Assembly (NCBI GenBank): GCA_045863855.1
Contig: BTVV01000003.1
Location: forward strand, 1-64,000
Reading direction: 5' to 3'
DNA length: 64,000 nt
From: Planctomycetota bacterium
Lineage (GTDB): Bacteria; Planctomycetota; SZUA-567; H5-PLA8
Shown here: piece by piece, positions 7,881 to 50,453 of the stretch
Layout of the letters: the number at the start of each line of letters is the position of its first letter
Numbering within the stretch: the stretch's first letter is position 1
Notes under the pieces: generated by a model
The model's input: only the letters and a program-made list of their open reading frames with translations
Database searches by the model: none
What the model was told of the DNA's origin: nothing
Position numbers and translations under genes: made by a program

Positions 7881-8082
7881 CGGGCTCCTTCGTGACCTCT
7901 CCTGAAGCAGCAGGGGCCGCGAACGTTCGAATCCATCCCCAAATCCTGAAAAATTATCGCACGGGTGCTGCACCTATGGGGTGCGCGCGGTGCGCGATAC
8001 GGTGTCCCGCGTACTGTACCCCACGCCAAGGCTGGATGGCCATAAGGCGCTTGGATGGAATATGAAGGCGGCAGGCCGCGAA

Positions 8083-22500: not shown

Positions 22501-22658
22501 TAGCGGCAGGGGCGCAAAGGAATGAGTAAAACGTAATCCACGGCGCATGCGCAAAAGAGTCGTCGATTACTTTTTACTTATCGCTCCCCGTCCATCCCCA
22601 CTTTCCCCCTGCCGCTCCGCACAGTATCCTCTGCCAGCCCGTGCACCCGAGACCGAGC

Positions 22659-23150: not shown

Positions 23151-23560
23151 CGCGCAGGTCCAGTTTCCAGATTCCGGATGCCGGTGCACGGCGCAGGCCG
23201 GGTGACGCCCGGCTGGGCGCACCTTGCGCCCAGTTGAATCCGTGCGAGCCCGGGTCGGCCGCCTGGAAAATGGAAAGCTCAGACCGTCATTCCGATTCCC
23301 TGCTCGTTGTGTCAGGAGCGTCCCGGCTTGGATTGGAAATGCACATTGGTGCATTCATTTATGGGGATAGTTCTCTAAGAGGGCGATGCGGGGTGCGTCT
23401 TGGGCCTACGTCTCGGGAGCCTCTGTCCCGGGATCGGGGTGCGGGGAACGGTCTTGCGGTCCGGTTTGAGTTAGGTTTTTGGTTTTGCGTTTTGGTCCGA
23501 ATCCACGGATACTGGGCCACTCCTAACTCAAGAATCGGCAAGACGAAAGGGGCCACAGTG

Positions 23561-26500
23561 ATGGTTCGGCAACTGCTTTCGGAACGACGTGCGGGGAATC
23601 GGTCGACGCGAGCGCGCAGCGCGACGTGGACTTGGGCCTCGCTGTTGCTGTTGGCCCTGTCGGCGGCAGGCGCACAGGCGCAGACGGTGGTGGTGGATGA
23701 CTTCTCTGATGATGGTGGTGGCGCGGAACCTGTGGTGGCCAATTCCAGCACCAACGGGGTGGCCAATGTCGTCACTGGAGCCATAGGCGGCGAACGAGAC
23801 ATTACCATTACGGAGACGGGCGGCGCGAACATCACGGTCGGCGTAAACGGCGGAGGTGGATCGTTCGTCATCCAGTCTCAGGTGGGTGCCATTGGAACCT
23901 ATGAGGTTCAGTACGATTTAACCGATGGAGATGAGACCACGCTCGATTCGGCTGCTGGTTCTGGTTTGGCTGCCCTTAACCTCACGCTTACGTCAGGTGG
24001 AACTCAAAACGCCTTTGTCATTAACATGGCAAGCAATGCGGTTGCATTTACCTCCACCTTGCGGGTTTACTCGGACACCACTGTATTCAGCCGCTTTGAT
24101 ATCGCCTGGCCGGTTTCCGCCGCGCCGTTGCGGCTCGTGATTCCGTACAGCGCATTTGTCACGGGCGGCGGAGCCACGGGTCCGGCGGACTTCACGGCGG
24201 TTACCGCCATCACGCTTTCGGGAACGATTGCAGGCGGCGTGTCGCTTGCGCTCTCCCCAAACTTCGAGACCACGCAGGAAATTACCGCCTCGCTGGTCGC
24301 TAGCCTCCAGGTGGACGTGAACGGCGACGGCTTCTATCAGCCCGGCGACACGATCCGCTACACGGCCACGCTCACCAACCCGGACGACGACGCGAACCTC
24401 GCCATCAACAACGTCGATATCAATATTCCCATTCCCACAGATACGACCTTGGTTCCGGCATCGGTGGTGGCGGCAGGCGGGACGATCAACACGACCAATC
24501 CGGTCAACGTCACCTTCGCGAGCATCGCGGACAACGCCACGGCCGTCGTCACGTTCGATGTCCTGATTGACGATCCGCTCACCAACGCGGGGACCTTCCA
24601 AATCACGGCACAGGGTACGGTCCAGGAAGGACGCGCGACGCAGGACTTCATCGTGGATCTGCTCACTGATGACGAAGAGCCGCCGATGGGTAACGATCCG
24701 ACGGTCGTGGACCTCAACCATTTCATCACGGGTGTGGTCTTCGTTGACGACGATGGCGACGGCTTCGACAACGACACGATGCCGCTGGCCGGCGTCTCGG
24801 TTGAATTGTTGGACTCGGGTGGCACCGCCTTGGTGCCTCCGATTGTCGATATTACCGATGCCGCGGGCGCTTATGGGTTGAGTCCCCCGGCGACTGCGGG
24901 TCCGGACGATTACATCGTTCAAGTGACCCTTCCTGGGGGTCGGGCATTTACGGTGCAGGATCAGACGGTGCCGGCGGCGGACGACACCATCGACAGCGAC
25001 GTGGATACGGGCACGGGACAGACCGCCGTATTCTCGTTGGACAGGGCCACCAACATCGGTGATTTCGATGCCGGCGTCTTCACGCTCGTCACCATCAGCG
25101 GACGCGTCTTCGAGGATGTGGACGGCGACGGGCAGTATGACGGCGGCGTGACCGACCTTGACGAGCCGGATGGGTTTACGGTCAACTTGCTGGATGGCGC
25201 CGGCACGTTCATCACGTCCACCACGACGGCCACCGCCACGTACAGCTTTACCGGCCTCGCCCCTGGCAGCTATATCGTCGAGTTCGACGACGCCAGCTTG
25301 CGCGTAGGCTACGGTTTCACGACCCAGGATTCGGGCGCCGATGCCACCGACAGCGACGCCAATCCCGATTCGACGAGCCTGACGCACGGGCAGACGGCGG
25401 TCATCACGCTCACCAGCGGGGTGGACAACACCACCACCTTCGCGGGTACGGCCACGGCCACCATCAGCGGCCGCATCTTCGACGACCGCAACGACAACGC
25501 TCAATACGGCGCGCCGCCCGATGTGGACGGACCGGACGGATTCACCGTCAACATCTACGACATCAACGATCTGGTCACGCCCTTCGACACCACGACCACT
25601 TCGGGCGGAACGTACAGCTTCCAGCTCCCCCCCGGCGATTACGTCGTCGAGTTCGATCCGGCTGGCCTGGCCCTTTTCGGCACGAACTACACCTTCGTTC
25701 CGGCCGATGTGGGCTCCGACGCCACAGACAGCGACGCCAACGTCACCACCGGCCGAACCGGCACCATCACGCTTCCGGCGGCCACCGTGATCGGCAACGT
25801 CTTTGCCGGCGCGAACAACATCGTCGATCTGACGGTGACCAAGACGGTCAACAACCCGTCTCCTTCCGACGGCGGCACGGTGACCTACACGATCACCGTC
25901 ACCAACAACAGCACGCGCAATACCGCCGCCGCGGTTGAGATTACGGACGACTTAGCGGGCGGTTCGGGCGGCATCACCATTGTGGCGGCCAGTTCGGTGG
26001 CCAGTGCGGGCAGCTTTAACGAAGGCACGGGCGTGTGGGACGGCTTCTCGCTCGCTCCCGGCGCGACGGAAACGCTCACCTACGACGCCACCATCGACTT
26101 CGTCGCCGGCGGACCGCTCATCACCAATACGGTTGTCGTCACCGGCATCCAGGGCGTGGACCCGACGATCGAGGACCTCGACCAGGACGACAACGACGAT
26201 ACGGCCACCGTCTCCGTCTCGGGCGGGGCGATCAAAGTCACCAACATGAACTTGTCGCTCAACTTCAAGAAGCACCTCTTCCCCACGGCCAACCTCACCG
26301 ACACGCTCACCGCGAGCGGTCGGGTCAACTTGGCCGCGTTCGTTACGGCCAGCGTGGACGAAGCCGCGTTCCTCACGGAAGTCCGCTTCTACGCGTTCCG
26401 CGTGGTGGTCGGCACGCCCGGCGGGCCGGTGGACATCACGCTGAATACGCCGATGAAGGCCAGTTCCAAGCTGGTCTCGTGGCAAAGCAACCGCTCGGCT

Positions 26501-27286
26501 CGGCCCAATGTCCGCGCCAGCTTCAGCCCCACGACCGGCGCGTTTAGCGTTTCGATCGTGAACGACGATATCTACGACGCGCTGGGCGCTCCTGCCGCCC
26601 TGAACATGCTTCCGGCGCCGGCCACGGTGGACGTCCCGCTGGCGATCTGCATCGGGCCGTTCAACGTCGATCCGGCCACGGGCGATCCGGCCGAGTACGC
26701 CACGAACAGCCTGGTCTACACGCTGCGCAAGCCCGACACGGTGGGCAAGGGCGCCTTCCGCTTCGGCAGCGTGGGCCAGCCGCCGACGGAGCTGACCTTC
26801 GTCGATTTCCTCGCGATCACTCAGCGCGGGAACGTGATCGACGGCTTCGAGCAGCGCGCGCAGGTCAAGCTCAGCCTGGTCCGCGATCCGATGGATCCGC
26901 TCTTCGATCCGGCCACCTTTGGCGTGGATATCGGCGTGGGCGCGATGCCGGCGGTCACTATCCCGCCGGGTTCGTTTACGGGCACGAACGGGAAGTTCAG
27001 CCTCACCGGACCCGCCGCGCTGGCCCTGGGCTTCAGCCAGGTCAGCTACGACGAGACCCGTTTCATATTCACCTTCACCACGGACTGGCTGCCCGACGGC
27101 ACCTTCGGCGAGACGGCCATCCTGGACGTGCCGGGCGATCCGCGCCGGGCGATCATCGTACCGATCCAGGTCAGCATCACCGACGGGATGGCGACCACGA
27201 CCAACTTCCTCGCGTCCGGCGTCGCCGGCCGCGCGGGCGCGGTCTTCAGCAGCACGGCTCCGACGGTGATCTTCGCCGGACAGTAG
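23561..27286 (+). CDS. Large secreted Thr/Asp-rich surface/adhesin-like protein (DUF11-like and SdrD-B-like Ig repeats)
   Basis: Signal peptide ending AQAQ; PGDTIRYTATLTN and DLTVTKTV..VTYTITVTN (DUF11-like); three ISGRVF.D.DGDG..Y.VEF..DSDA..GQT units. Confidence 0.85.
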   Translation: MVRQLLSERRAGNRSTRARSATWTWASLLLLALSAAGAQAQTVVVDDFSDDGGGAEPVVANSSTNGVANVVTGAIGGERDITITETGGANITVGVNGGGGSFVIQSQVGAIGTYEVQYDLTDGDETTLDSAAGSGLAALNLTLTSGGTQNAFVINMASNAVAFTSTLRVYSDTTVFSRFDIAWPVSAAPLRLVIPYSAFVTGGGATGPADFTAVTAITLSGTIAGGVSLALSPNFETTQEITASLVASLQVDVNGDGFYQPGDTIRYTATLTNPDDDANLAINNVDINIPIPTDTTLVPASVVAAGGTINTTNPVNVTFASIADNATAVVTFDVLIDDPLTNAGTFQITAQGTVQEGRATQDFIVDLLTDDEEPPMGNDPTVVDLNHFITGVVFVDDDGDGFDNDTMPLAGVSVELLDSGGTALVPPIVDITDAAGAYGLSPPATAGPDDYIVQVTLPGGRAFTVQDQTVPAADDTIDSDVDTGTGQTAVFSLDRATNIGDFDAGVFTLVTISGRVFEDVDGDGQYDGGVTDLDEPDGFTVNLLDGAGTFITSTTTATATYSFTGLAPGSYIVEFDDASLRVGYGFTTQDSGADATDSDANPDSTSLTHGQTAVITLTSGVDNTTTFAGTATATISGRIFDDRNDNAQYGAPPDVDGPDGFTVNIYDINDLVTPFDTTTTSGGTYSFQLPPGDYVVEFDPAGLALFGTNYTFVPADVGSDATDSDANVTTGRTGTITLPAATVIGNVFAGANNIVDLTVTKTVNNPSPSDGGTVTYTITVTNNSTRNTAAAVEITDDLAGGSGGITIVAASSVASAGSFNEGTGVWDGFSLAPGATETLTYDATIDFVAGGPLITNTVVVTGIQGVDPTIEDLDQDDNDDTATVSVSGGAIKVTNMNLSLNFKKHLFPTANLTDTLTASGRVNLAAFVTASVDEAAFLTEVRFYAFRVVVGTPGGPVDITLNTPMKASSKLVSWQSNRSARPNVRASFSPTTGAFSVSIVNDDIYDALGAPAALNMLPAPATVDVPLAICIGPFNVDPATGDPAEYATNSLVYTLRKPDTVGKGAFRFGSVGQPPTELTFVDFLAITQRGNVIDGFEQRAQVKLSLVRDPMDPLFDPATFGVDIGVGAMPAVTIPPGSFTGTNGKFSLTGPAALALGFSQVSYDETRFIFTFTTDWLPDGTFGETAILDVPGDPRRAIIVPIQVSITDGMATTTNFLASGVAGRAGAVFSSTAPTVIFAGQ

Positions 27287-30900: not shown

Positions 30901-31040
30901 GAATCCATCCCAATGGGGGAGCGCACCCGTGCACCCGCCCAAATTGGGACCGAATGATACGTGCCTGCGCCCGATTTGAAAGCGTGGAAACGCTTGTGAG
31001 CCGATTTAGCCGTGCGGCCAACTTCGCGCGCGGCTTGAGG

Positions 31041-32408
31041 TTACTCGTAGGTGACGGCTTCCAGCGGGCCGGGGGCCGCGTACGCCCACGCCCACTCGCC
31101 CACGGGATCGACATCCAGTTCGCGCGCCAAGCGTTGAAATTCGGCTTCGGACAGAACCAGCGGCTTGACGGGATCGGCCGGCGCCGGTTGCGCTTCGACG
31201 GGCAGCGGGCGCTTCTCGGCCTTGGCGGGCTCGGGTTCCGGCTCGGGCTCGAGGGAGGCTTTGTACTCCTCGACCGAATCCGCCACCATCTCGGCGACGG
31301 GCAGGCTTTCGACCAGATCCAGCAGCGCCGCGTCGGGCTCCACGTCGTCGGGCGGCGCGACGCCGTCTTTGTAGAAGAACGCGATGTCCACTTCCTCGAA
31401 CGCGACCAGCGCTTCGCGCGCGGCCGCTTTCGGAGCGTCCTGCTTCGGGGCCGCCGCCGCGGCTTTGCGCGGGGCGGGGGAGCGCGCGGCGGCCGGCGCG
31501 ATCTCCTCGAGGTTTTCCTCGGCTTCGTCCTCGTCCGAGCCCACCACTTCGTCGGTGGCTTCGACGTCCAGCTCGTCGAGGTTGACGTTGATCTTGGCTT
31601 CGCGGACCGGCATCTTGTACGGCTCGTCGGAGACGATCTTCCGTTCGCGGCGGCGCAGCCCGCGGTTATCGACTTCGATCGTCTCCGCGTTGGACTCGTC
31701 GAGGTTATCGAGGCCTTCGATCTCGGGTTCGGGCGGAAGCGCGGGCGCGGCTTTCTGCCGGGCGGCCGGCGCGCGGGCGGGCGGAGCGGCTTCTTCGGTC
31801 TCGATCTGCTCGGGCGGCGCGATCTCCATCGGCGCTACCACATCGGCGCCGGCGTCGTCCAGCGCCTCGACTTCCGGCGCGCCGGCTTCGCCGTCGCCGA
31901 CATTCAGATCGGGCTCGGACTCGTCGGGCCGCGCCAGGTTCTCTTCGGTGTAGCTGCGGTCGATCAGTTCCTTGATCTTCGGCCAAGGCGCCTTGAACGG
32001 CTTGACCTTCAGGCGCGTCTTTTCTTCGATGGTGTTGATCGCGCGACGATTGAGCGGGTTGCCCATGACCACGCAAAGCAGATTGCCCAGGCGCTCGAAC
32101 GGGCAGAGCTTGTCGGCATCGCACTGGTCGGCGGGAACCGTCTTGAGCACCGACGAGCCAACCTGGAGATCTTCGCAGTGAATGTCGGTGACTTGGACCT
32201 GCTTGAGCAGCGCGGCGCCGACGGCATGCTCGTCGCACGCGCCGAGGCTGCGCAGGATCTGTCCGATCAGGCCGCCTTCTTTTTCCTGGATCTTGAGCGC
32301 TTTGGCGATCTGCTCCGCCCCCACGTCGCCGTTGTCCTGCAGCAACTGGCCGAGTTGCTTGGAGCGCATGGAAAAGCGCGTGGAGCGCCGTGATGGGCTG
32401 TTCGCCAT
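31041..32408 (-). CDS. MshEN/T2SSE_N-domain protein with acidic disordered C-terminus (no ATPase)
   Basis: KQLGQLLQDNGDVGAEQIAKALKIQEKEGGLIGQIL followed by a GSPII N-terminal fold (LCPFER..VVMGNPLN..I..IE). Confidence 0.78.
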   Translation of the reverse strand: MANSPSRRSTRFSMRSKQLGQLLQDNGDVGAEQIAKALKIQEKEGGLIGQILRSLGACDEHAVGAALLKQVQVTDIHCEDLQVGSSVLKTVPADQCDADKLCPFERLGNLLCVVMGNPLNRRAINTIEEKTRLKVKPFKAPWPKIKELIDRSYTEENLARPDESEPDLNVGDGEAGAPEVEALDDAGADVVAPMEIAPPEQIETEEAAPPARAPAARQKAAPALPPEPEIEGLDNLDESNAETIEVDNRGLRRRERKIVSDEPYKMPVREAKINVNLDELDVEATDEVVGSDEDEAEENLEEIAPAAARSPAPRKAAAAAPKQDAPKAAAREALVAFEEVDIAFFYKDGVAPPDDVEPDAALLDLVESLPVAEMVADSVEEYKASLEPEPEPEPAKAEKRPLPVEAQPAPADPVKPLVLSEAEFQRLARELDVDPVGEWAWAYAAPGPLEAVTYE

Positions 32409-32441: not shown

Positions 32442-33488
32442 TCACTCCAGGACCTTGATCAGCGTCAGCAGGTTTCCGCCGCGCGGGTTGGGGCGGTGTT
32501 CCACGGTGTCCATCGACTGAATCACGCTGGCGAAGCGCTGGTCGGCGTAGATCGAGCCGCCCGCGCCGAAGTCGAACGGCTTGCCGTGGTCGGAAATCTT
32601 GACGGTGAGCGTCTTTCCGTTGGGCACGATCAGCAGGTGGAAGCTGCTCTTGGAATCGCTCTCGTAGGCCAAGTCGATCACGCGCTCGCAGGCATCCACC
32701 ACCGCTCCGCTGATCTGGTCGAGGTTATCGCCGTTGAATCCGCAACCTTCGGCACAGCGCGCGGCCAGTTCACCGACACCGCTCAGCAGTTCCTTGCGCG
32801 TGGGCAGGCTGAGTTCGACGGGCGTGCCCTTTTTGGAAGCGAAGAAGCGGACCTTGCCCGTCGGTTCGACGGCCAGCACCGTGCCGCAGCGCGGGCACTT
32901 GTACTTACCGACGGCCGGAATATCGAGCGTCACGCGGCAGCGCGCGCACTGGGCCTGAGTCGGGAACGCGGCCGGAGCCGCGGCTGCGGGGGCCGGAGCG
33001 GGCGCGGCGTGCGCCGCCGGAGCCGCGTAGTGCGAAGGGGTCGCCGGGTAAGCCGGGGCCGCCGGAGCGGGCGCGGCGTACGACGGCGCCTCCTGATGCA
33101 CTTTCACCGAGGCCGGCGGCGCGGTTTCGCCGCTGAAGCTGCGCAGCGCGGTCGCCTCGTCCGGAACGATGTTGAAGAGTGCGTTGAAGCCCAGCATTTC
33201 CATCACGAGCATGACCTTGCTCGGTACGCGGCAGAACGCGATATGCCCGCCGATCGATTCGAACGTGTCGGCGTACTTGAGCAGCGTGCCCAGACCGGTC
33301 GAATTGATGTACTTTACGCTGGTGCAGTCGAGGATCAGGTTCTTGACGCCGCGCTCGATCAGCTTGTCCATGACCTGCTGGAACTGCTGAATGGTCGTCG
33401 CGTCGATGGAGCCGTCGATCTCGGCCAGCGTCGCCGTGGTTCCCGAGGGGGACTTGATGACTTTGACTCGAAACTCAATGGATGCCAT
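32442..33488 (-). CDS. STAS anti-anti-sigma + Zn ribbon + degenerate RsbW-like HATPase fusion
   Basis: STAS GSIDA..LILDCTSVKYINSTGLG; Ala/Pro linker; CARC..CPRC; KISDHGKPFD..MDTVEH. Confidence 0.88.
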   Translation of the reverse strand: MASIEFRVKVIKSPSGTTATLAEIDGSIDATTIQQFQQVMDKLIERGVKNLILDCTSVKYINSTGLGTLLKYADTFESIGGHIAFCRVPSKVMLVMEMLGFNALFNIVPDEATALRSFSGETAPPASVKVHQEAPSYAAPAPAAPAYPATPSHYAAPAAHAAPAPAPAAAAPAAFPTQAQCARCRVTLDIPAVGKYKCPRCGTVLAVEPTGKVRFFASKKGTPVELSLPTRKELLSGVGELAARCAEGCGFNGDNLDQISGAVVDACERVIDLAYESDSKSSFHLLIVPNGKTLTVKISDHGKPFDFGAGGSIYADQRFASVIQSMDTVEHRPNPRGGNLLTLIKVLE

Positions 33489-33563
33489 GACCGCTCCACC
33501 TCACCCTGCGCGCGCCACCGGTTGTCGTTCCGCCCCCCACGGCCCTGGACCGGGCCTCGCGGG

Positions 33564-34670
33564 TCAGGCTTTCTGGATGTACTTCGTCAGCGTGATTTTG
33601 TTTCCGGCGTAGTTGTACTCCAGCTTGTCGACGCAGCGCAGCATCAGCATGATGCCCAGCCCGCCGGCGCCGCCGGCCAAGTTGCGTTCGCGCGCCGCTT
33701 CCACCGGGTTCCCGCCCACGCCGCGGCTCAGGTAAATCTCCGTGTCGAAGCCTTCGCCGTCGTCCATCACCGAAACCGTCACCTTCTCGCGGTCCACGAA
33801 GTATTGGATATCGACGGGCCGCGCTTCGTTGTACTTGTTGCCGTGCCGGGAACCGTTGTCCACGGCTTCGCGGAACGCGATCGCCAGCGCCTCGCGCGAC
33901 TCTTCGGGCAGCCCCGACTGCTGCAGCATCTCGCCGAACAGATCGTTGCAGCGCTCGATGCAGTCTTCCTTCGTCTGCAGGCGGAAATGAATCGAATGGT
34001 CGAAGTAGTTGCGTTCCTCGGCGAAGCGCGCCAGCTCCGACTCGGCCAGCCGCACCAGCTCGGAAAGCTCGAACGGCTCGACGATGGACTCGTCGTGCTG
34101 GACCTGCAGGCCGGTCACGGCCTGCGGATCTTCGCCTTCCGCGAAGATGCGGACGATGGCGATCATGCTCGATTCTTTGCGCTTCTTGACCGCTTCGCAG
34201 ACCTTCCACGGTTCGGAGAGTCCGACGTCTAGCACCACGAGGTCGGGCGGCTCTTTGCGCAGTTGAGCGACCGCGTCGTCTTCGCCCTGCACCACCGTCA
34301 CGTTGCTGCGCGGGCTCGTCAGCCGCGCGGCCATCACGCCGGTGAAAAAATTCTTCTTCGGGACCACCAGCAGAATCTGGTAGACGCCCGTTCCTTCAAG
34401 CTTCTTGCGGAACTCTTCGTCGAGATCGAGATGCACGCGCCGCACGGCGGGCAAATGCATGTTGGAACCCGCGGCGCTTTTCGCCGCCACGGTTTGCCCC
34501 TGCTTCAATTGGACGGTGAGGAATTGTGGCAGTTCGATTCGGTTGCCGCGCTGAAGTTCTTTCTTCATCACGTCAATGGCCCGGTCCAGCACCGCCAAGG
34601 CCGTGGCTTCGGGCTGATTCAGCTCCTGAGCCACGCGCTGTGCCAGCTCGGGTGTCGATAGGCTCTTCAT
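33564..34670 (-). CDS. HU/IHF-like domain + receiver-like domain + RsbW/SpoIIAB-type anti-sigma Ser kinase fusion
   Basis: ELAQRVAQEL..LDRAIDVMKKELQRGNRIELPQF (HU-like); PDLVVLDV (REC); EAVDNGSRHG, DDGEGFD, GGLGIMLM (HATPase_c_2). Confidence 0.85.
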   Translation of the reverse strand: MKSLSTPELAQRVAQELNQPEATALAVLDRAIDVMKKELQRGNRIELPQFLTVQLKQGQTVAAKSAAGSNMHLPAVRRVHLDLDEEFRKKLEGTGVYQILLVVPKKNFFTGVMAARLTSPRSNVTVVQGEDDAVAQLRKEPPDLVVLDVGLSEPWKVCEAVKKRKESSMIAIVRIFAEGEDPQAVTGLQVQHDESIVEPFELSELVRLAESELARFAEERNYFDHSIHFRLQTKEDCIERCNDLFGEMLQQSGLPEESREALAIAFREAVDNGSRHGNKYNEARPVDIQYFVDREKVTVSVMDDGEGFDTEIYLSRGVGGNPVEAARERNLAGGAGGLGIMLMLRCVDKLEYNYAGNKITLTKYIQKA

Positions 34671-34784
34671 GTACGCCTCGCGCTCCGCAACACCCCCAGC
34701 GCCGGGTCTCGGCCCGGCGTCTGCCCCAACTCGAATCGCCAATAGAGCTTCTAGTATACTGCCCCGCGTGCATTCCGGTCAATG

Positions 34785-35408
34785 CTACTTGTGCCGAGCT
34801 ACCCGCGCGAACAGTTCTTCCCGAGAGATCACCTGCTTCTCGGCCAAAAGCTCCACCAGCGCCTTCAACAAAACCGTCGGCGCCACCTCGACCCGGCCCT
34901 TGGCGCCGCCCGAACCGGCCGCCGCCGCCACGCCGCCCGAAGCACGGTACGCCGCTTCGGCTTCTTCCAGCTCCGGGTTGGATCTTCCATGACAGTAGTA
35001 GTCGATCGCCTTTTGGATATCCAAGCGCGTCGAGACCGCCAGATCGGTCCGCAATCCGGTTAAAAATCGAATCTCATCGATGGCCGCGAAATCGAGCGGA
35101 TCGGAAACTGCCAGGATCAACGCATCTTCGGTCCGGCGCAGGGGAAGCAGTTGATGCTTTTCCAGCACCTCTACGTCGATCAGCGCCGAGACCTGCGGCG
35201 AGACCACCAGGTCTTTCAGGCCCAGCATCGGGAGGCCCATCTGCTTGCTCATAAGCTGCGTCAGTTGCTCTTCGGTGACGTAGCGCAGCTTGGCCAGGAT
35301 GACCGGAAGCTTACCGCCGACCTGCTTTTGAGTATCCTGAGCGGTCTGTAGTTGTTCGGGCGTAACCAAGCGCGCTTGAGTGAGCCATTCGGCCAGCTTA
35401 TCGCTCAT
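34785..35408 (-). CDS. Stand-alone MshEN/T2SSE_N-domain protein
   Basis: KLAEWLTQARLVTPEQLQTAQDTQKQVGGKLPVIL..KHQLLPL..LAVSDPLDFAAIDEIRFLTGL; short C-terminal helical domain (LVELLAEKQVISREEL). Confidence 0.82.
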   Translation of the reverse strand: MSDKLAEWLTQARLVTPEQLQTAQDTQKQVGGKLPVILAKLRYVTEEQLTQLMSKQMGLPMLGLKDLVVSPQVSALIDVEVLEKHQLLPLRRTEDALILAVSDPLDFAAIDEIRFLTGLRTDLAVSTRLDIQKAIDYYCHGRSNPELEEAEAAYRASGGVAAAAGSGGAKGRVEVAPTVLLKALVELLAEKQVISREELFARVARHK

Positions 35409-35633: not shown

Positions 35634-38600
35634 TCAGCGCAACTGGGACACCAGACCTTCCATTTCACGGGCGACCTGCAGGAACTGATCGCCTTGCTTG
35701 TGGATCTCTTTGATCTTCTGGTCCGAGGCGTTCATGCCGCCGTCCACGCTCACTTCGCCGATCTCGCGGCTGTGGTGCGGTTGAGCGGTGGTGCTTTTTA
35801 GTTCATTGCCCTTCGAATTGATCTTTTTGCGCACTTCGTCGAGGCCGCGGCGCGCGGTGTCTTTTGCGCCGTTCGAGGTGGCCTGAGCCAGACGATCGGC
35901 TTCCACAAAGCGGCTGGCCAGGATCTCCTGGTTGGCTTGCGCCAGGTTGCCTTGCACGGCGTTAACCGTACCCTGGAGTTCCGGTTCGTAGTTGCGCGCG
36001 ATGGACTTGCGCAGAAGCGTGCGGGCGCTCTCGATCGTCTGCTTGGCCCGGTCGACATCTTGCTTGGCTTTGGACATGTTTCCTAAAGCCAAAGCGAGCG
36101 TGGCCAATTCGCCGGGATTGGCGCCCACTTTACGCACCGCGCTATCGGCCGCGGACTTGGCTTGATCGTAGTTACCGTTATTAACCGCCGAGGTGACGGT
36201 CGGCCAGATTTCGGCTTTGGCCAGGCGGATTTTGCGTTGGTGAATGGCGGATTGAACTTGGCTGATGAGTCCGTCGGCTTCCTGGACGAAAGGCGGCCCA
36301 TTGGTCTGGTCTTTGGCGAAGACCGTTCGGGCGGCCGTCGCTTTTTCCAGCGCCGTATCCAGGCCATTGTCTCCTTGCCCGTAGGCCGTGCGCGCGGCAG
36401 TCATGAGTTCCTTGAACGCGGCCTGATTCTTTTCGAACTCGATCTGAAGCTGGCGCTGCACTTTGGCGTTGGCCAGCAGCGGTTCGTACCCCGCCTTGCC
36501 CAAGGCGTTTAGTTCGATCAGCGACTCGTAGGTCTTGATCGCCCCGGCCCAGTTCTTGCCGGTCTCTTCCTGCTTAACCTGCGTCTCGAGCTTGTTCGTT
36601 TCGCGCGACTTCTTCAGGTGCGTATCGAGGTACTCGCGGATTTTCTGGCCGACGGCGGGCACCTTTTGCTTGCTCTCTTCCAGCTTTTTCAGGGCTTCGC
36701 CGTACTTGCGGTCCGCGCGTTCCAGTTCCTCGACCGCGCTGAACGCTTTCAATTCCTGCAGCGCTTTTTCGCCCCGCACCGCGTGCTCCTGGACCTCCGC
36801 CAGCACGTTGCGGAACGCCACCGCGGCTTGGGCGACTTCGTCGCTGCGATGCTTAAGCGCCTCGGCGTAGGACGTCCGCGCTTCACTTGCTTTGCGGGCT
36901 TCGAGGTACGAATCGCCGGAGATTATGGCGTTCTTGTACTGGAGGAGATTGTTCAACAGCCCCAGCTTGGCGTCGAACTCGCCCCGCTTTGCCGGATGTT
37001 CCTGGCTCAAGCCCTTGAAGATCTCGATGGACTTGGCGTAATCCTCCTGGGTTTCCGCATCCAGCCCCTGCTTCTCCAGGTCCGCCAATTCCTTCAACTT
37101 CATTCCGAGGTTCGCGATCTTGGTTTCCAGCTCTTTGATAAGTTCGGCCTGATTGGAATCCTTCGCCAGCGCCTGCGCGCCTTGGAATTCCTTAAGCGCG
37201 GCTTCCCATTCCTTATTCTCTTCCTGCTTGGCCGCTCCCACCATCTTGGATCGCGAGCGGGCCGCCGCCAGTTTTTGCGTAGCCGGCACGTCGTCGGGCT
37301 GTTTCTGCAGCGCTTCTGTGTAGTACAGTTCGGCGTCCTGGTACTTACCGTCGCGCATGCGCGAATCGCCGTCGCTGACCAGCCGGACGTAGTCCTTGCC
37401 CTTGAAGACTGCCTCACGCGCCTGCTGGAGTTGCGTCTTCAAGCCTTCGTCGTCCGGAATCATGCTCGAAGCCAGCGCGATCTGGCTCAGCGCGCTTTCC
37501 AGTTCGCCCTTCTCCTTAAATTTGGCGGCTTGGTCCAAGTACCCGTCGGCACGCGCGCGCGCCGACTCTTTGAGCAGGATCTGGCGCAGTTCGTCGTCGT
37601 TCCCCAAGGCCAGCGAGGCCGCTTGGCGCAAATTCTCCGAAGCCGTTTCGAAATTCCTGCCTTCGGCCAGCGTCTTGGCGGTCGTTCGCAGGCGCTCGAT
37701 GTCGATGCGCGCTTTCCAGCGGGCGATGTGAGCGGCAGCGGCTTGGTAATCTTCCTGCCCTGCTCGCTCGGCGAAATCGCGCGCGCCTTCGAAATCCTGC
37801 TTCTTGGCCGCGGCTTCCATTTCGAGCATGGCCTTCTCGAATTTCACCTTCGACAGCAGCGCCGCGGCTTCCTTGGTGGAAAGCCGTTTTTGCTCCAAGG
37901 AATCCGTTTGCGTGAGTATTGAAATCAAGTTTTGCCAGTCCGCATCGGACTTCTCTTTTTTCTTGTAAATCTCCAGGGCCTCATCCAGCTTTTCTTGCAC
38001 GACCAGGAAGCCGGATTCGGTCGCCCGCGTCAGTTCGCCGTCGGTGTGCTGGTAGAGTTCGCTGAGCAGTTTGCTTGCGGCGAAATCGCGCTGCGCCTGG
38101 TAGGCCAGGTTTTTCGCTTCCTTGTAGCGCTTGGCGTCGATGAGCGTGCGGACTTGGTCCTGGGTCTGCGTTTCGATCCCTTTCAGCGCGTCCTGCTCCA
38201 GCTTGAGGAGCGATTCGTCTCCGCTGAAGCGCTGCAACGCGTCCTTGGCCATGGCATAGGCGTCGGAGAACTCTTTCTTGTCGATCTTGCCTTGGACTTC
38301 TTCCGTCCAGCGCCCGCGGATATCGTCCTTTAGCTTCAGCAACGAGCTGTCGTCGCGGAAATCGCCCAAAGCGTTGGAGACCGTTTTAAGCGCTTCTCCG
38401 AAACGTCCGTCGGCCATCTTCTGGTTGGCCTCATTGACGTATTCGTTCAGCCGGGAATTCCGGTACGCCCAAAAGCCTCCGCCGGCAACGACCACCAAAA
38501 GCGCCGCGGCGGCGACGCCGATCCAGAGGAAGGAGCTCTTGGCGCTGGGGCCGCCCGGCCCCGTCGGCGTGGCGGGCGTATACCCGCCGGGCAAGGGACC

Positions 38601-39761
38601 GGGGCGCGGCGTGTGCGTCCCGCCCGGGCCGTGGATCATCGTCGGTTCGAAGCCCGTGGTCGCGCGAGCCGTCCCAGGCGTGGACCCGGATGCGCTCGGG
38701 CCGCTGGGCGGCGAAATCAGCGTCGGCGTCATGGCGTCGCCGTAGGTGCCCGGCGTCGAGACCCCTTGGCCGCCCTGCGTCGAATAGACCGATCCGCCCG
38801 TGGCCGTTTGAGGCACCTGGGTCCGCTGTGTCATCGGCGTCGGACCGGGCGTCATCTCGCTGGGATCGAGGTCTTTGGCCGCCGGAATCGAGGCTTCGAT
38901 CACCTTCAGGAAATCGAACTCGGAGGGCGGCTCGGGAACGATCTTTTTGGCCTTCTCGACATCCTTGAACAGCTCATCGGCCGTCTGGTAGCGGTCCTCG
39001 CGCTTCTTGGCCATCAGCTTGAGGACGATGCGGCAGGTTTCCTCGTGCAGATTAGCCACGAGCGTTCGCGGATCGGGTACCGCTTCGAACTTATGTTTGT
39101 ACAACACGCCCAGCGCCGTGGGCGCCGTGAACGGCGGCTGTCCCGTCATCACCGCGTAGAAGGTGGCGCCGAGCGAATACAAATCGCTGCGTACGTCGGC
39201 CACGTCGCCGTCGCACTGCTCGGGGCTCATGAACGTCGGCGTGCCCAGGAAGGTTCCGGTGCGCGTGAGATGCGATTGGCTGGAGGACTCGAGCACCAAG
39301 CCGAAGTCCACCAGCTTGAGCGTGCCTTCCTGATTGACGAGCATGTTCTCGGGCTTGATATCGCGGTGGATCAAGCCGTGCTTGTGCGCGCCGCCCAGCC
39401 CCTTGGCCGCCTGTGCGAGGCAGTCGAGCATCACCGATTCGGGCAGCGGCCCGTAGTCGCGTACGATGCCGCCGAGGCTCGCGCCTTCGATCAGCTCCAT
39501 CGCGATGTAGTAAAGCCCTTCGGCTTCACCGGCGTCGTGGACGGCAACGATATTGGGGTGGTTCAAGTTCGCGATGGCGCGCGCTTCCCGCATGAACCGC
39601 GCGACGTATTCGGGCGAACGGGTGAACTCGCTGGGAAGAACCTTCAACGCGATTTTGCGGCCGAGCGTGGTGTGCACGGCGCGATATACGCTGCCCATGC
39701 CGCCGGCGCCGATTTTGCCGACGATCTTACAGTTGGCAATAACTCGTGCACTGCTTTCCAC
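35634..39761 (-). CDS. Hanks-type Ser/Thr protein kinase with TM helix and large TPR-like helical extracytoplasmic region
   Basis: IGAGGMGSVY, ALK, HRDIKPEN, DFG, GTPTFMSPEQ, SDLYSLG; Pro/Thr linker; TM LWIGVAAAALLVVVAGGGFW. Confidence 0.95.
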   Translation of the reverse strand: MESSARVIANCKIVGKIGAGGMGSVYRAVHTTLGRKIALKVLPSEFTRSPEYVARFMREARAIANLNHPNIVAVHDAGEAEGLYYIAMELIEGASLGGIVRDYGPLPESVMLDCLAQAAKGLGGAHKHGLIHRDIKPENMLVNQEGTLKLVDFGLVLESSSQSHLTRTGTFLGTPTFMSPEQCDGDVADVRSDLYSLGATFYAVMTGQPPFTAPTALGVLYKHKFEAVPDPRTLVANLHEETCRIVLKLMAKKREDRYQTADELFKDVEKAKKIVPEPPSEFDFLKVIEASIPAAKDLDPSEMTPGPTPMTQRTQVPQTATGGSVYSTQGGQGVSTPGTYGDAMTPTLISPPSGPSASGSTPGTARATTGFEPTMIHGPGGTHTPRPGPLPGGYTPATPTGPGGPSAKSSFLWIGVAAAALLVVVAGGGFWAYRNSRLNEYVNEANQKMADGRFGEALKTVSNALGDFRDDSSLLKLKDDIRGRWTEEVQGKIDKKEFSDAYAMAKDALQRFSGDESLLKLEQDALKGIETQTQDQVRTLIDAKRYKEAKNLAYQAQRDFAASKLLSELYQHTDGELTRATESGFLVVQEKLDEALEIYKKKEKSDADWQNLISILTQTDSLEQKRLSTKEAAALLSKVKFEKAMLEMEAAAKKQDFEGARDFAERAGQEDYQAAAAHIARWKARIDIERLRTTAKTLAEGRNFETASENLRQAASLALGNDDELRQILLKESARARADGYLDQAAKFKEKGELESALSQIALASSMIPDDEGLKTQLQQAREAVFKGKDYVRLVSDGDSRMRDGKYQDAELYYTEALQKQPDDVPATQKLAAARSRSKMVGAAKQEENKEWEAALKEFQGAQALAKDSNQAELIKELETKIANLGMKLKELADLEKQGLDAETQEDYAKSIEIFKGLSQEHPAKRGEFDAKLGLLNNLLQYKNAIISGDSYLEARKASEARTSYAEALKHRSDEVAQAAVAFRNVLAEVQEHAVRGEKALQELKAFSAVEELERADRKYGEALKKLEESKQKVPAVGQKIREYLDTHLKKSRETNKLETQVKQEETGKNWAGAIKTYESLIELNALGKAGYEPLLANAKVQRQLQIEFEKNQAAFKELMTAARTAYGQGDNGLDTALEKATAARTVFAKDQTNGPPFVQEADGLISQVQSAIHQRKIRLAKAEIWPTVTSAVNNGNYDQAKSAADSAVRKVGANPGELATLALALGNMSKAKQDVDRAKQTIESARTLLRKSIARNYEPELQGTVNAVQGNLAQANQEILASRFVEADRLAQATSNGAKDTARRGLDEVRKKINSKGNELKSTTAQPHHSREIGEVSVDGGMNASDQKIKEIHKQGDQFLQVAREMEGLVSQLR

Positions 39762-42575: not shown

Positions 42576-44780
42576 ATGAATCACGTCGTTGTGGAGCGTG
42601 AGATCGGCGGTCGTACGCTGCGGATCGAAACGGGCAAGTGGGCGAAGCAGGCGGCCGGTTCGGCGGTGGTGACGCTGGGCGAGACGATGGTGCTGGCGGC
42701 GGTGGCCGAGCAGCCGTTACGGGAAGGCATGGACTTCTTTCCGATGACGGTGGATTACCGGGAGCGCGGTTACGCGGCGGGGATGATTTTCGGCGGGCGC
42801 TTCATGAAGCGCGAGAGCCGGCCCAGCGAAAAAGAAATTCTGACGATGCGGCTGATCGACCGGCATATCCGGCCGCTCTGGCCCAACGGTTACGCCAGCG
42901 ACGTGCTGATCCAGTGTCTGGTGCTTTCGGCGGAGCAGGACGTGGATCCGGACGTGGTGGCGATGATCGCGACGAGCGCCTCGCTGGCCGTATCGAACCT
43001 GCCATTCCAGGGTCCGACGGGCGGCGTGCGCATCGGCTGCGTGGACGGCCAGTACGTGGTCAATCCGGGCATCGAAGCGCTGAAGAAGTCGACGATCGAG
43101 CTGGTGGTCGCGGGCACGAAGCATGCGGTGACGATGGTCGAAGCCGGCGCGCAGTGCGTGACGGAAGATCAGATGTTCGGCGCGATCCAGCATGGGCACG
43201 AAGTGATCAAGACGATCGTAGGGGCGATCGAGGAACTGGCCTCCAAGGGCGGGGCGAAGAAGCTCGAGTTCGCCGAGACGCCGTCCGATCCGCTGGTGAA
43301 CGACCTGTGGGGCAAGCACGAAGCCGAGTTCATGACGGCGGGATACACGGAAACGAAGTTCGGCCGGGCCAAGGCGCGCAAGGCGCTGACCGAGAAGATG
43401 GTGGCAACGTACGCGGCGAAGGACGAGACCGAAGAGAAGTCCGGCAAGCCGAGTAAGGGGCGCGTGAAGGAGCTTTGCAGCGCGCTTTGGGAGCGGACGA
43501 TCCGCAAGATGATCACGCTGGACAAGCGCTGCGACGGACGTTCGCGCAAGGGCATCCGCCCGATCTGGTGCGAGGTGCAGTTGCTGCCCCGCGCGCACGG
43601 TTCGGCGCTGTTCACGCGCGGCGAGACGCAGGCGCTGGTGGCGATGACGCTGGGCACGGTGGACGACCAGCAGCTCGTGGAGAGCCTGACGGGCGAGTTC
43701 AACGAACGCTTCCTGTTGCATTACAACTTCCCGAGCTTCTGCGTGGGCGAAGTGAAGATGCCGCGCGGTCCGGGACGGCGCGAGATCGGGCACGGCCGGC
43801 TGGCCAAGCGCGGTCTGGAAGCGATGCTGCCGGACTACGAGAAGTTCCCGTACACGATCCGCTTGGTGAGCGAAATCCTGGAGTCGAACGGGTCGAGCTC
43901 GATGGCGACGGTCTGCGGCGGGACTTTGGCGCTGTACGACGCGGGCGTGCCGATGAAGGCGCCGGTGGCGGGCATCGCGATGGGCCTGGTGGAAGAGGGC
44001 GGGAAGCACTACGTCATCAGCGACATTCTGGGCGACGAAGACCATTACGGCGACATGGACTTCAAAGTGGCCGGCACGAAGGACGGGATCACGGCGCTGC
44101 AGATGGACATCAAGAGCAGCGGGGTTCCGAGCGACGTGATGCGCCAGGCGCTGGATCAGGCGCGCGAAGGGCGCATTCACATCCTCGACCAGATGGCGCA
44201 GACGATGGCGGCTCCGCGCGAGCAGATTTCGGAGCACGCTCCGAAGATCGTGCAGCTCAAGATCGACCAGGAGAAGATCGGCAAGCTGATCGGCCCCGGC
44301 GGCAAGACGATCCGCGGGCTGGAAGAGAAGTACGGCGTGACGATCAACGTGGAAGACACGGGGAACGTGGTGGTGGCGGCTCCGAAGCGCGACAAGGCGG
44401 ACGAGGTCGCGGCGCTGATCGAAGCGATCTGCGGGACTCCGGAAGTGGGCCGCGTGTACCACGGCGAAGTGGTCAACATCAAGGATTTCGGCGTCTTCGT
44501 CGAGATCATGCCGGGCGTGGACGGGATGTGCCACGTTTCGGAACTGGATGTGGCCTACGTCAAGAGCCCCGGCGATGTGGTGAAGGTGGGTGACAAGATC
44601 GACGTGAAGTTGATCTCGATCGACGACCTGGGCCGGATGAAGCTGTCGCGTAAGGCGCTTCTGATCGAGCAAGGCGTACCGGTACCGCCGCGTCCGGAAG
44701 GGGCTGAGGACCGTGGCGGCGGTGGCGGCGGCGGGCGCGATCGGCGACCTCCGCGCCGGCGCGAAGGCAGTCCGGAGTAA
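42576..44780 (+). CDS. pnp: Polyribonucleotide nucleotidyltransferase (PNPase)
   Basis: FFPMTVDYRE, HGSALFTRGETQ, RREIGHG, SNGSSSMA, GDMDFKVAGT, KH and S1 domains. Confidence 0.98.
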   Translation: MNHVVVEREIGGRTLRIETGKWAKQAAGSAVVTLGETMVLAAVAEQPLREGMDFFPMTVDYRERGYAAGMIFGGRFMKRESRPSEKEILTMRLIDRHIRPLWPNGYASDVLIQCLVLSAEQDVDPDVVAMIATSASLAVSNLPFQGPTGGVRIGCVDGQYVVNPGIEALKKSTIELVVAGTKHAVTMVEAGAQCVTEDQMFGAIQHGHEVIKTIVGAIEELASKGGAKKLEFAETPSDPLVNDLWGKHEAEFMTAGYTETKFGRAKARKALTEKMVATYAAKDETEEKSGKPSKGRVKELCSALWERTIRKMITLDKRCDGRSRKGIRPIWCEVQLLPRAHGSALFTRGETQALVAMTLGTVDDQQLVESLTGEFNERFLLHYNFPSFCVGEVKMPRGPGRREIGHGRLAKRGLEAMLPDYEKFPYTIRLVSEILESNGSSSMATVCGGTLALYDAGVPMKAPVAGIAMGLVEEGGKHYVISDILGDEDHYGDMDFKVAGTKDGITALQMDIKSSGVPSDVMRQALDQAREGRIHILDQMAQTMAAPREQISEHAPKIVQLKIDQEKIGKLIGPGGKTIRGLEEKYGVTINVEDTGNVVVAAPKRDKADEVAALIEAICGTPEVGRVYHGEVVNIKDFGVFVEIMPGVDGMCHVSELDVAYVKSPGDVVKVGDKIDVKLISIDDLGRMKLSRKALLIEQGVPVPPRPEGAEDRGGGGGGGRDRRPPRRREGSPE

Positions 44781-46631: not shown

Positions 46632-46641
46632 GTGGGCGAGG

Positions 46642-50440: not shown

Positions 50441-50453
50441 GGGTGAGGTCGAG

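Follow-up and report, generated by a model that had tools for sequence, protein, structure and literature searches.

Introduction

RsbW and SpoIIAB are single-domain Bergerat-fold proteins of ~140–160 residues that are encoded together with a sigma factor and a PP2C phosphatase. For regulators that combine a receiver (REC) with an RsbW-type domain, the first genetics was reported in 2025 for TciR (PMC12826045) and the first structure in 2026 for LvrC (PMC13269768). LvrC from Leptospira interrogans is described as a homodimer that binds ADP and whose REC touches the Bergerat domain of the partner; its receiver is canonical, and the kinase LvrB phosphorylates D53 in it (Nat Commun 2026, PMC13269768). 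TciR from Vogesella indigofera is paired with TciK, a histidine kinase, lacks an HU domain and comes from a genome without RsbV, according to the cited portion of the report, in which 13 of 100 CDART hits to this architecture fell in Planctomycetes and the kinase residues were conserved, per the authors (J Bacteriol 2025, PMC12826045). In the Vibrio fischeri SypE/SypA system, an RsbW-like serine kinase with a receiver acts on a STAS protein, with an output other than a sigma factor; the cited part of that work gives the order kinase, REC and PP2C phosphatase, with a functional REC (PMC10120452).

Here we describe P0001, which is encoded in a 64,000-nucleotide stretch (contig BTVV01000003.1 of assembly GCA_045863855.1, positions 1 to 64,000; hereafter the window) from a Planctomycetota bacterium and combines an HU fold, a receiver keeping only the phospho-aspartate and an intact RsbW-type kinase. 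Literature searches returned no publication on such an architecture or family, and the words HATPase, receiver, kinase, anti-sigma and STAS are absent from the full text of the HU-fusion survey by Burroughs et al. 2017 (PMC5499826).

Domain architecture of P0001

The features of the locus are listed in Table 1. Homologues begin with M-K-T/S-V/L-S at the place of the P0001 start codon, and a GAGG Shine-Dalgarno-like motif lies 6 nt upstream of the ATG. Pfam, the AlphaFold2 model (mean pLDDT 88.4) and Foldseek, which matched all three domains in the PDB, agree on the fusion and confirm that the three folds reside in one protein. This architecture had been proposed in a sequence-only reading of the locus as having no characterised counterpart, and none is described in the literature searched.

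Table 1. Coordinates of the features at the P0001 locus and of two further genes of the window.
Feature	Position	Strand	Remarks
ECF-type sigma factor	7236..7973		
MASE1-CHASE histidine kinase	15235..17724		
MshEN_B, second MshEN-domain protein	31041..32408	−	455 aa; last of conserved four-gene block
STAS / Pro/Ala linker / Zn ribbon / catalytically degenerate RsbW-like protein	32442..33488	−	348 aa; presumed kinase substrate
P0001, target gene	33564..34670 (incl. stop; ATG at 34670)	−	368 aa; HU-fold / pseudo-receiver / RsbW-type kinase
P0001, HU-fold domain	34392..34670 (residues 1–93)	−	Arm ~56–73 degenerate
P0001, pseudo-receiver (REC-like) domain	34014..34382 (residues 97–219)	−	
P0001, RsbW/SpoIIAB-type Bergerat kinase domain	33579..34004 (residues 223–364)	−	N, G1 and G2 boxes intact
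Sigma-70-like promoter match	34753..34782	−	TTGACC-18 nt-TATACT; in 114-nt gap between MshEN_A and kinase gene
MshEN_A, stand-alone MshEN (c-di-GMP-receptor-type)	34785..35408	−	~207 aa from ATG 35408; longest ORF from TTG 35513
Ser/Thr protein kinase, long helical C-terminal region	35634..39761	−	1375 aa; Pkinase 162.9 bits

The N-terminal domain has a genuine HU fold. Residues 7–91 matched PF00216 (Bac_DNA_binding) over profile positions 4–89 of 90 (34.0 bits against a cut-off of 22.4, E 3.6e-8), and PF18291 (HU-HIG) reached 27.8 bits against a cut-off of 26.2. The model follows the HU order, with helices at residues 6–17 and 21–40, five strands within residues 45–83, and a helix at residues 85–92. 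Foldseek superposed the HU domain on HU 5l8z with a TM score of 0.82 (rmsd 2.0 over 95 columns), on 1p71_B (TM 0.75) and on IHF 1ihf_A (TM 0.74). Two HU-like chains were hit by the family profile, 6n2l_A at E 2.1e-8 and 5eka_A at E 2.5e-7. The domain thus shares the fold of HU and IHF, with a profile match over the whole 90-residue domain, but differs from them in that most arm arginines are gone and signalling domains are fused to it. The pattern P..R.V....E.RK.L, by which the HU domain had initially been recognised, is two residues off in its spacing, which is immaterial to the assignment.

The central domain has a receiver fold. Many REC chains were matched by Foldseek at TM 0.73–0.82, and the family profile found the REC of YycF (E 3.7e-15), PhoB and other REC chains. 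PF00072 (Response_reg) scored 28.1 bits on residues 108–207, which is below its cut-off of 30.2, and this cut-off was passed by only one of 80 locus homologues (L005, 34.9 bits). In the profile alignment with YycF, the acidic pair is replaced by P104-K105, the threonine by F176 and the lysine by E198, and only the phospho-aspartate, D148, is kept, in line with its earlier description as a pseudo-receiver. Among 79 relatives, the first acidic position is proline in 67, the threonine position holds Thr/Ser in none, and the lysine position is occupied by Glu (46) or Gln (33) and never by Lys; Asp148 is kept in 78. This near-invariance of Asp148 hints at some function.

The C-terminal domain matched PF13581 (HATPase_c_2) at residues 242–363 with 66.7 bits (cut-off 27.4), and Foldseek aligned it with SpoIIAB (TM 0.82–0.83) and RsbW (TM 0.85–0.91). 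The NCBIfam RsbW equivalog model gave 42 bits, far under its cut-off of 145. The N box (E268, N272, H276), the G1 box (D303-x-G-x-G307) and the G2 box (G336-G-x-G339) are intact, as originally noted: E268/N272/H276 and the G2 glycines are present in all 79 relatives and D303 in 78 of them. P0001 thus shares both the Bergerat fold and the N/G1/G2 boxes with RsbW/SpoIIAB (6m36, 6m37, 1th8, 1til), carries every ATP-binding box, and is predicted to be a serine kinase; it differs in having two extra N-terminal domains and no sigma-factor or phosphatase gene nearby.

The top Foldseek match to P0001 was LvrC (PDB 9qih; E 5.3e-12, 325 columns), which covered both domains. As in LvrC, the receiver lies directly N-terminal to the RsbW-like Bergerat domain; unlike LvrC, P0001 possesses an N-terminal HU fold and a pseudo-receiver, and the relative domain orientation differs between the two proteins (TM 0.31–0.38, rmsd 14). 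TciR similarly pairs a REC with an RsbW-like anti-sigma domain in the cited sections of its report (PMC12826045); P0001 differs from it by its adjacent STAS partner and by having no linked histidine kinase.

Family distribution and the HU arm

At least 251 homologues of P0001 were found, and the Planctomycetota family comprises 217 clusters at 50% identity (E ≤ 1e-30). Its members occur in the phagocytosis-like Ca. Uabimicrobium as well as in the anammox bacteria Ca. Kuenenia and Ca. Brocadiia. The PF00216 cut-off was passed by 59 of 80 locus homologues, and in many relatives a half HU unit accompanies a full one, resembling an intramolecular pseudo-dimer. The N-terminal module varies on a common REC-kinase core: the sister clades nearest the window clade have a shortened arm, and in another the HU domain is replaced outright by STAS, with the core and the neighbours kept. 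This STAS-for-HU fusion was found in five loci and two further representatives. Twelve family representatives scanned with Pfam contained no MshEN domain. Seven of them exceed 500 aa. Five of these, three of 651–691 aa with Pfam-blank N-termini and two of 542 and 513 aa, have no STAS or MshEN match, and P0180 and P0233 are STAS-REC-kinase proteins; the shorter representatives, a 472-aa protein and four of 275–291 aa, consist of the REC-kinase core only. A search for longer homologues, aimed at fused forms, gave none at E ≤ 1e-10, which is weak evidence.

The canonical HU arm carries the motif R-N-P-x-T-G with an intercalating tip proline. The arm of P0001, K56-QGQTVAAKSAAGSN, has no R-N-P-x-T-G tip, as the remark that it lacks GRNP had anticipated; as aligned, it reads K-Q-G-Q-T-V-A-A-K-S-A-A-G-S-N, with no proline, and the K-D-P-K-T-G tip of relatives corresponds to K-S-A-A-G-S. 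The tip proline is absent from the window clade, in which the arm segments scored (those of L003, L004 and L009) hold one to three K/R; P0001, whose segment is outside the scored set, has by reading two lysines, K56 and K64. Arm-keeping relatives have 4–10 K/R per arm, their HU units score up to 80–90 bits, and the arm of the Ca. Uabimicrobium homologue reads K-N-P-R-T-G-R-K. Of 70 HU-type members, ~32 have a basic arm, and 28 of these also a tip proline; the pattern [DN]P.[TSH]G, with 18 of 70, undercounts arms. Within the window clade, conservation is lowest in the arm (0.63, with the other regions at 0.72–0.80), compared with 0.77 for the HU helices and 0.75 for the β3-α3 segment. This contrast inside the clade is modest. 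The net charge of the HU domains does not discriminate between the clades.

These data bear on two readings in which the HU domain defines the function. In the first, a nucleoid-tethered kinase, HU would bind DNA, and the kinase or anti-sigma factor on the chromosome would capture a sigma factor or phosphorylate DNA-bound proteins. The fold is indeed that of HU, close to half of the HU-type members retain a basic arm, and P0001 itself keeps the arm at full length together with R77, R78, R88, K89 and K90, which may leave its HU domain some DNA affinity. Against such a tether, the tip proline and the arm arginines are gone from the window clade, the arm is its least conserved segment, sister clades delete the arm or swap HU for STAS while retaining the REC-kinase core and neighbours, and the net charge of the domain is only ~+2. 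We therefore regard a tether as unlikely. The initial proposal of a nucleoid-tethered protein is not supported in that form for the window clade; what stands of it concerns the other half of the family, which keeps basic, Pro-tipped arms.

In the second reading, also raised initially, the HU domain would pair with free HU/IHF and either recruit the kinase to HU-bound DNA or sequester or phosphorylate HU. HU folds dimerise via the α1-α2 body, and both the helices and the β3-α3 segment are better kept than the arm. In addition, the half and full HU units of many relatives argue for HU-body pairing as a theme of the family. The presence of STAS at the position of HU in a sister clade is, however, hard to square with an HU-specific partner, and a heterodimerising regulator appears very unlikely.

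Downstream STAS protein and missing partners

The STAS gene lies ~75 nt downstream of the kinase gene. Its product matched PF01740 (60.6 bits) and, on profile positions 2–80 only, PF13581 (30.2 bits), and its AlphaFold2 model (pLDDT 86.2) was aligned by Foldseek with SpoIIAA (1til_B, TM 0.83) and SpoIIAB (1th8_A, TM 0.83). The motifs K-Y-I-N-S-T-G and C-x2-C...C-x-R-C are invariant in 25–26 homologues of this fusion protein, in which the RsbW-like domain has no N, G1 or G2 boxes. The neighbouring STAS protein mentioned in the sequence-only reading is encoded immediately downstream and has a phosphorylatable serine. It is RsbV/SpoIIAA-like in bearing the serine of D/N-S-T/S-G-L-G and differs from RsbV and SpoIIAA by its fused Zn ribbon and dead RsbW-like domain.

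Among the 73 loci with enough sequence, the STAS gene is directly downstream in 25, which are the non-fused members of one half of the tree, that of the window; L003 and L015, whose loci end early on the 3' side with a partial STAS match, are further members. MshEN_B (PF05157 36.9 bits; 32.2 bits with the NCBIfam motif model, under its cut-off of 38) comes after the STAS gene in this half. The other half, with basic Pro-tipped arms, has no adjacent same-strand STAS gene. Proteins that join STAS, instead of HU, to this REC-kinase core tie STAS to the P0001-type kinase.

No sigma-factor or PP2C/SpoIIE gene was found in the four-gene block. In the window, Pfam scanning of 33 + 87 ORFs, which covered those of ≥ 150 aa, gave no PP2C/SpoIIE phosphatase, and the sole sigma factor found was of the ECF type and lies 26 kb away. 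With neither a phosphatase nor a nearby sigma factor, the partner switch is incomplete as seen, and the label "anti-sigma" that had been attached to P0001 is unproven.

Farther upstream, full-length homologues of the 1375-aa Ser/Thr kinase occupy the same place in L001–L004, and a Pkinase+WD40 gene occurs there in Ca. Uabimicrobium, L061 and L062; the position is not conserved elsewhere, and the association of this kinase with the module is uncertain.

Upstream MshEN protein

MshEN domains are described, in the cited part of the work of Wang et al. 2016, as tandem 24-residue motifs with a 5-residue spacer, followed by a GSPII/T2SSE_N fold (PMC5013675). MshEN_A resembles these receptors in its putative tandem 24-residue motif region and the GSPII/T2SSE_N fold that comes after it, but it stands alone, at ~200 aa, and lacks any ATPase or glycosyltransferase domain. 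CdgR (PMC10068817) was considered as a model for a stand-alone c-di-GMP receptor working through protein contact, but it is ComFB-like rather than MshEN and provides only a loose analogy.

MshEN_A scored 79.2 bits with PF05157 and 49.4 bits with the NCBIfam c-di-GMP motif model NF053729 (cut-off 38). Measured against the relaxed tandem motif of Wang et al., 6 of its 22 constrained positions are mismatched, compared with three or fewer in 25 of 42 relatives; Ala and Pro occupy the two R-L-G glycines, and Arg both turn glycines. Binding of c-di-GMP by the MshEN_A of the window is uncertain.

In 66 of 70 loci, an MshEN gene of the same orientation lies directly upstream of the kinase gene (tblastn detected 62 and Pfam another 4); none was seen in the remaining four, namely L009 and L011 (tblastn and Pfam) and L012 and L014 (tblastn only). 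The gap between the two genes is 1–7 nt in many loci, and GGDEF genes flank both sides in one locus. Of note, this adjacency is the strongest contextual signal at the locus and was absent from the sequence-only reading. The promoter match in the gap of the window agrees with the consensus at 10 of 12 positions; it is a consensus match only, and four such sites occur in 13.5 kb vs 1.7 expected. Terminators were not enriched (16 found vs 15.9 expected). Operon structure would be suggested here by gene spacing only.

The conservation of the neighbourhood also bears on a third reading, a conventional REC-regulated anti-sigma factor akin to LvrC and TciR. An unlinked histidine kinase would phosphorylate Asp148 and the Bergerat domain would sequester a sigma factor encoded elsewhere, with the STAS protein as antagonist only and MshEN unrelated. 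LvrC, the best structural match, and TciR are proposed to act so in the cited sections of their reports (PMC13269768, PMC12826045), the aspartate is kept in all but one of 79 relatives, and the window encodes a MASE1-CHASE histidine kinase. Yet the Mg-binding acidic pair, the Thr/Ser (0/79) and the Lys (0/79) are absent throughout the family, PF00072 falls under its cut-off in P0001 and 79 of 80 locus homologues, no histidine kinase is conserved beside the kinase gene in the loci examined, and an MshEN adjacency of this frequency is hard to dismiss. Such conventional regulation seems highly doubtful.

Proposed mechanism

The reading we prefer, and to which we give about an even chance, is a partner-switching-type kinase module in which a dimeric kinase acts on the STAS neighbour, MshEN provides input via the pseudo-receiver, and the HU domain is mainly a scaffold. 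Since HU folds occur as obligate dimers and the Bergerat domain mediates the dimerisation of RsbW, SpoIIAB and LvrC, P0001 is probably a dimer. It would bind the STAS domain encoded downstream and phosphorylate it on Ser63, and the dead RsbW-like domain and Zn ribbon of the STAS protein may convey the output or provide docking to the kinase. The pseudo-receiver would stay unphosphorylated and, like the REC of LvrC, pack on the kinase domain and relay a protein-protein input, for which the upstream MshEN protein is the best candidate; the module would then be c-di-GMP-responsive. SypE, by comparison, has neither an HU domain nor an MshEN neighbour. In the window clade, the HU domain would have lost the arm chemistry for DNA bending and serve mainly for dimerisation or as a scaffold. 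Family members of the other half, whose arms are basic and Pro-tipped and which have no adjacent same-strand STAS gene, may still use it to keep the kinase on DNA.

A broader version, which we consider quite unlikely to hold as a whole, would make this an undescribed phylum-wide module, in which a stand-alone MshEN c-di-GMP receptor controls an HU-anchored RsbW-type kinase via the pseudo-receiver. In the half with intact arms, the kinase would sit on DNA and couple second-messenger levels to phosphorylation at the nucleoid or to the capture of a sigma factor; in the half of the window, the HU arm would have decayed as the STAS partner was acquired, giving rise to a soluble c-di-GMP-gated partner switch.

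Significance

The family adds to the REC-RsbW kind of regulator an HU fold, a receiver unfit for normal phosphorylation chemistry and a near-obligatory MshEN neighbour. If the link to this neighbour is functional, c-di-GMP would feed directly into a partner-switching kinase, and if the members with intact arms bind DNA, they would represent a rare case in which a nucleoid protein forms the base of a signalling kinase. The series from intact through decayed and truncated arms to the STAS swap, all on one core, is a natural experiment on the N-terminal module. The family is found in anammox bacteria and Ca. Uabimicrobium, in which regulation is almost unexplored.

Gene definition and family extent

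The target gene was assigned an ATG start because homologues elsewhere begin with M-K-T/S-V/L-S at this position and a GAGG motif lies 6 nt 5' of the ATG; a longer reading from TTG 34742 was judged unlikely. The minus-strand genes of the block all have conserved homologues. The long plus-strand ORFs that overlap them resemble the antisense ORFs common in ~65% G+C DNA, and nothing pointed to those over the target gene (e.g. 32496..34232) being real genes.

A word-indexed search returned at least 251 homologous proteins at E ≤ 0.001. Among the 120 matches listed, the source names shown were those of Planctomycetota MAG proteins, typically of 368 aa, with generic annotations ('ATP-binding protein', 'anti-sigma regulatory factor / nucleoid DNA-binding protein'). 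When 1.84 billion cluster representatives were scanned in full with an HMM, 217 matched at E ≤ 1e-30. The locus set comprised the best 80 of 138 relatives in one-genome-per-species contigs, of which 75 carry Planctomycetota-level names and five are labelled only 'bacterium'; family hosts include Ca. Uabimicrobium amorphum, Ca. Kuenenia stuttgartiensis and Ca. Brocadiia.

Features of the window and of homologue loci (L061, L076), with other genes of the window in the last rows
Feature	Coordinates	Strand	Remarks
HU/pseudo-receiver/kinase gene	33564..34670	minus	ATG start; 368 residues; stop included
STAS gene	32442..33488	minus	downstream of kinase gene; STAS + linker + ribbon + RsbW-like
Upstream MshEN gene	34785..35408	minus	
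Second, weaker MshEN protein	31041..32408	minus	after STAS gene; then carB
Ser/Thr protein kinase	35634..39761	minus	1375 aa; directly upstream of MshEN gene
ECF-type sigma factor	7236..7973	minus	Sigma70_r2 + r4_2; only sigma factor found among window ORFs scanned
Overlapping long ORFs	30954..32393, 32496..34232, 34526..35254	plus	242–578 aa
Double-HU form	L061:7473-8813		Ca. Uabimicrobium amorphum, plus about 40 other loci; 430–465 aa
GGDEF diguanylate-cyclase genes	L076:124-804, L076:3046-3690	plus, minus	flank MshEN + STAS-REC-kinase pair
Pkinase+WD40 protein	L061:3505-6717		Ca. Uabimicrobium; place equivalent to Ser/Thr kinase
Sensor histidine kinase	15235..17724	minus	MASE1 + CHASE sensor domains, HisKA, HATPase_c
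LexA-type repressor	10131..10754	plus	LexA DNA-binding domain + S24 peptidase
Probable surface protein	23234..27283	plus	1350 aa; SdrD B-like + DUF11 repeats; 35% identity to L002 homologue vs 73–86% for flanking genes
MacB-type efflux set	46597..51722	plus	two HlyD-family adaptor ORFs, ABC ATPase, MacB/FtsX permease
Polynucleotide phosphorylase	42576..44777	plus	housekeeping
SmpB	22641..23147	plus	housekeeping
SpoVG	63423..63983	minus	housekeeping

Domain architecture

The sequence-only reading had described an HU-like domain fused to a pseudo-receiver and an RsbW-type kinase, an architecture, HU fold included, that was borne out. Pfam identified Bac_DNA_binding (residues 7–91; 34.0 bits, cut-off 22.4), HU-HIG (27.8 bits, cut-off 26.2), Response_reg (residues 108–207; 28.1 bits, slightly below the cut-off of 30.2) and HATPase_c_2 (residues 242–363; 66.7 bits). 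AlphaFold2 was run on alignment A1, which held 59 full-length sequences picked from the 120 matches listed of 251, and the resulting model (mean pLDDT 88.4, pTM 0.71) begins with helix, helix, five strands and helix, the HU order. Foldseek against the PDB matched the HU domain to 5l8z (TM 0.82, rmsd 2.0, 95 columns), 1p71_B (TM 0.75) and IHF (1ihf_A, TM 0.74), the receiver to many receiver structures, and the kinase to SpoIIAB (TM 0.82–0.83) and RsbW (TM 0.85–0.91), with the Leptospira REC-Bergerat protein LvrC (9qih; E 5.3e-12, 325 columns) as the best structural match. The A1 sequence profile likewise detected HU-like chains across the whole domain (6n2l_A, E 2.1e-8; 5eka_A, E 2.5e-7), YycF-type receivers (E 3.7e-15) and RsbW (E 2.7e-7).

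Receiver and kinase residues

In the profile alignment to YycF, the acidic pair is occupied by P104-K105, the phospho-Asp is D148, and the Thr and Lys positions are F176 and E198. Across 79 relatives (the 80 loci minus the near-identical L001), the Asp position holds D in 78, the Lys position E in 46, Q in 33 and K in none, the Thr position Y, F, H, L, G, C or R and never T/S, and the first acidic position P in 67. A retained phospho-Asp with the acidic pair and Lys lost, first read from the target, is common to the family, and the receiver is, judged by these residues, a conserved pseudo-receiver family-wide. That the protein is instead a conventionally phosphorylated REC-anti-sigma factor, with D148 as the retained acceptor position, is improbable. 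The kinase boxes proved as intact as initially read: E268, N272, H276, the G1 glycines and G2 G-G-x-G are kept in all 79 relatives and D303 in 78, and the kinase domain joined to the pseudo-receiver looks competent from its sequence.

Variation of the N-terminal module

HATPase_c_2 was found in all 80 locus proteins and PF00216 in 60 (59 above cut-off); of the remaining 20, six are cut at the contig end, five carry STAS instead of HU and nine have short N-termini. This variation across the family is informative. STAS, with a Y-I-N-S-T/S-G motif, replaces HU on the same pseudo-receiver/kinase core in L026, L051, L053, L076 and L077 and in the protein representatives P0180 and P0233, forms that unite antagonist and kinase in one chain and still have the MshEN gene upstream. 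In many distant members, two helices and one strand make up a half HU unit that precedes a full one; the full unit scores up to 80–90 bits, and its basic proline-tipped arm looks canonical (e.g. K-N-P-R-T-G-R-K in Ca. Uabimicrobium); these double-HU forms are possibly intramolecular pseudo-dimers. P0170, P0188 and P0195 (651–691 aa) carry about 330 additional N-terminal residues with no Pfam match at E ≤ 0.001.

Among 70 HU-type N-termini classified, the arm is basic and proline-tipped in 28 (20 P-x-x-G-[HQRK], 8 Q-P-K-G-H), basic without Pro in four and absent in about 10. Within the clade of the target's close relatives (15 sequences), it is full-length and the tip Pro is absent, which agrees with the non-canonical tip reported for the target; arm segments scored in three members (L003, L004, L009) contain 1–3 K/R. 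The arm is also the least conserved segment of the clade, although the contrast is modest (mean column identity 0.63, with 1/18 columns invariant, versus 0.72–0.80 elsewhere). In this clade the HU fold would serve as a dimerisation scaffold. The sequence-only reading had proposed a nucleoid-tethered or HU-heterodimerising anti-sigma kinase, of which the architecture and intact kinase stand; tethering of the kinase to DNA by the HU domain is an unlikely rival to the scaffold, and pairing with free HU is more doubtful still.

Core tree and neighbouring genes

A FastTree phylogeny (LG+gamma) was computed from 80 sequences over the 272 columns of the REC-kinase core, with L020 omitted as too short; it was rooted at the midpoint only, with no outgroup, and thus does not fix the direction of change. 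The family splits into Group A (support 1.00, 32 sequences), comprising STAS-fused forms, short-HU forms and the target's clade, and Group B (support 0.95, 48 sequences), comprising single and double HU forms with better arms. A STAS link, fused or as the next gene, occurs in every Group A member. In Group B, no STAS gene follows the kinase gene on its own strand; at L031 and L069 a homologue is encoded on the other strand. Because relatives share traits, the association counts as one or two events, not as a statistic.

A homologue of the upstream gene, which encodes a stand-alone MshEN protein, immediately precedes the kinase gene in the same orientation at 62 of 70 loci by tblastn, and Pfam adds L024, L030, L033 and L040 (66/70); of the other four, L009 and L011 also lack it by Pfam, and L012 and L014 were searched by tblastn only. 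Gaps of 1–7 nt to the kinase gene are common. The window's own MshEN product passes both Pfam MshEN (79.2 bits) and the NCBIfam c-di-GMP-motif model (49.4 bits, cut-off 38); six of 22 constrained positions depart from the published relaxed motif, and 25 of 42 relatives have at most three mismatches. The GGDEF flanks at L076 fit a c-di-GMP link.

The STAS-gene product combines a STAS domain in which K-Y-I-N-S-T-G is invariant, a Pro/Ala linker that is disordered, a four-Cys ribbon that is likewise invariant, and an RsbW-like domain from which the N, G1 and G2 boxes have been lost; the model of this product reaches TM 0.83 to both SpoIIAA and SpoIIAB. The scan of window ORFs turned up no PP2C phosphatase. 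In the 1375-aa Ser/Thr kinase, the C-terminal region is very long, helical and rich in Lys, Glu and Ala.

Proposed mechanism and relation to known systems

By analogy with RsbW acting on RsbV and SypE on SypA, the kinase protein would form a dimer that binds the neighbouring STAS domain and phosphorylates its Ser63. The pseudo-receiver would relay a protein contact rather than a phosphoryl group, as suggested by the REC-to-Bergerat contact in LvrC, and that contact most likely comes from the MshEN protein, an arrangement that would make the module c-di-GMP-responsive. We regard the chances of this reading as a whole, including the HU scaffold in the target's clade, as evenly balanced.

REC-RsbW-like is a recognised architecture: TciR has been studied genetically, in a paper that notes Planctomycetes in 13/100 CDART hits (PMC12826045), and LvrC has a structure and demonstrated phosphotransfer (PMC13269768). 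The LvrC receiver is phosphorylated, whereas that of the target is a pseudo-receiver behind an HU fold. The words HATPase, receiver, kinase, anti-sigma and STAS are absent from the full text of a 2017 survey of HU fusions (PMC5499826), and no description of the family was found in the literature searched, which included few subscription papers; within that scope, the view that the architecture had not been characterised held. The target belongs to the REC-RsbW class: its RsbW-type kinase domain follows an HU-fold N-terminus and a dead receiver, and its MshEN partner gene is conserved.
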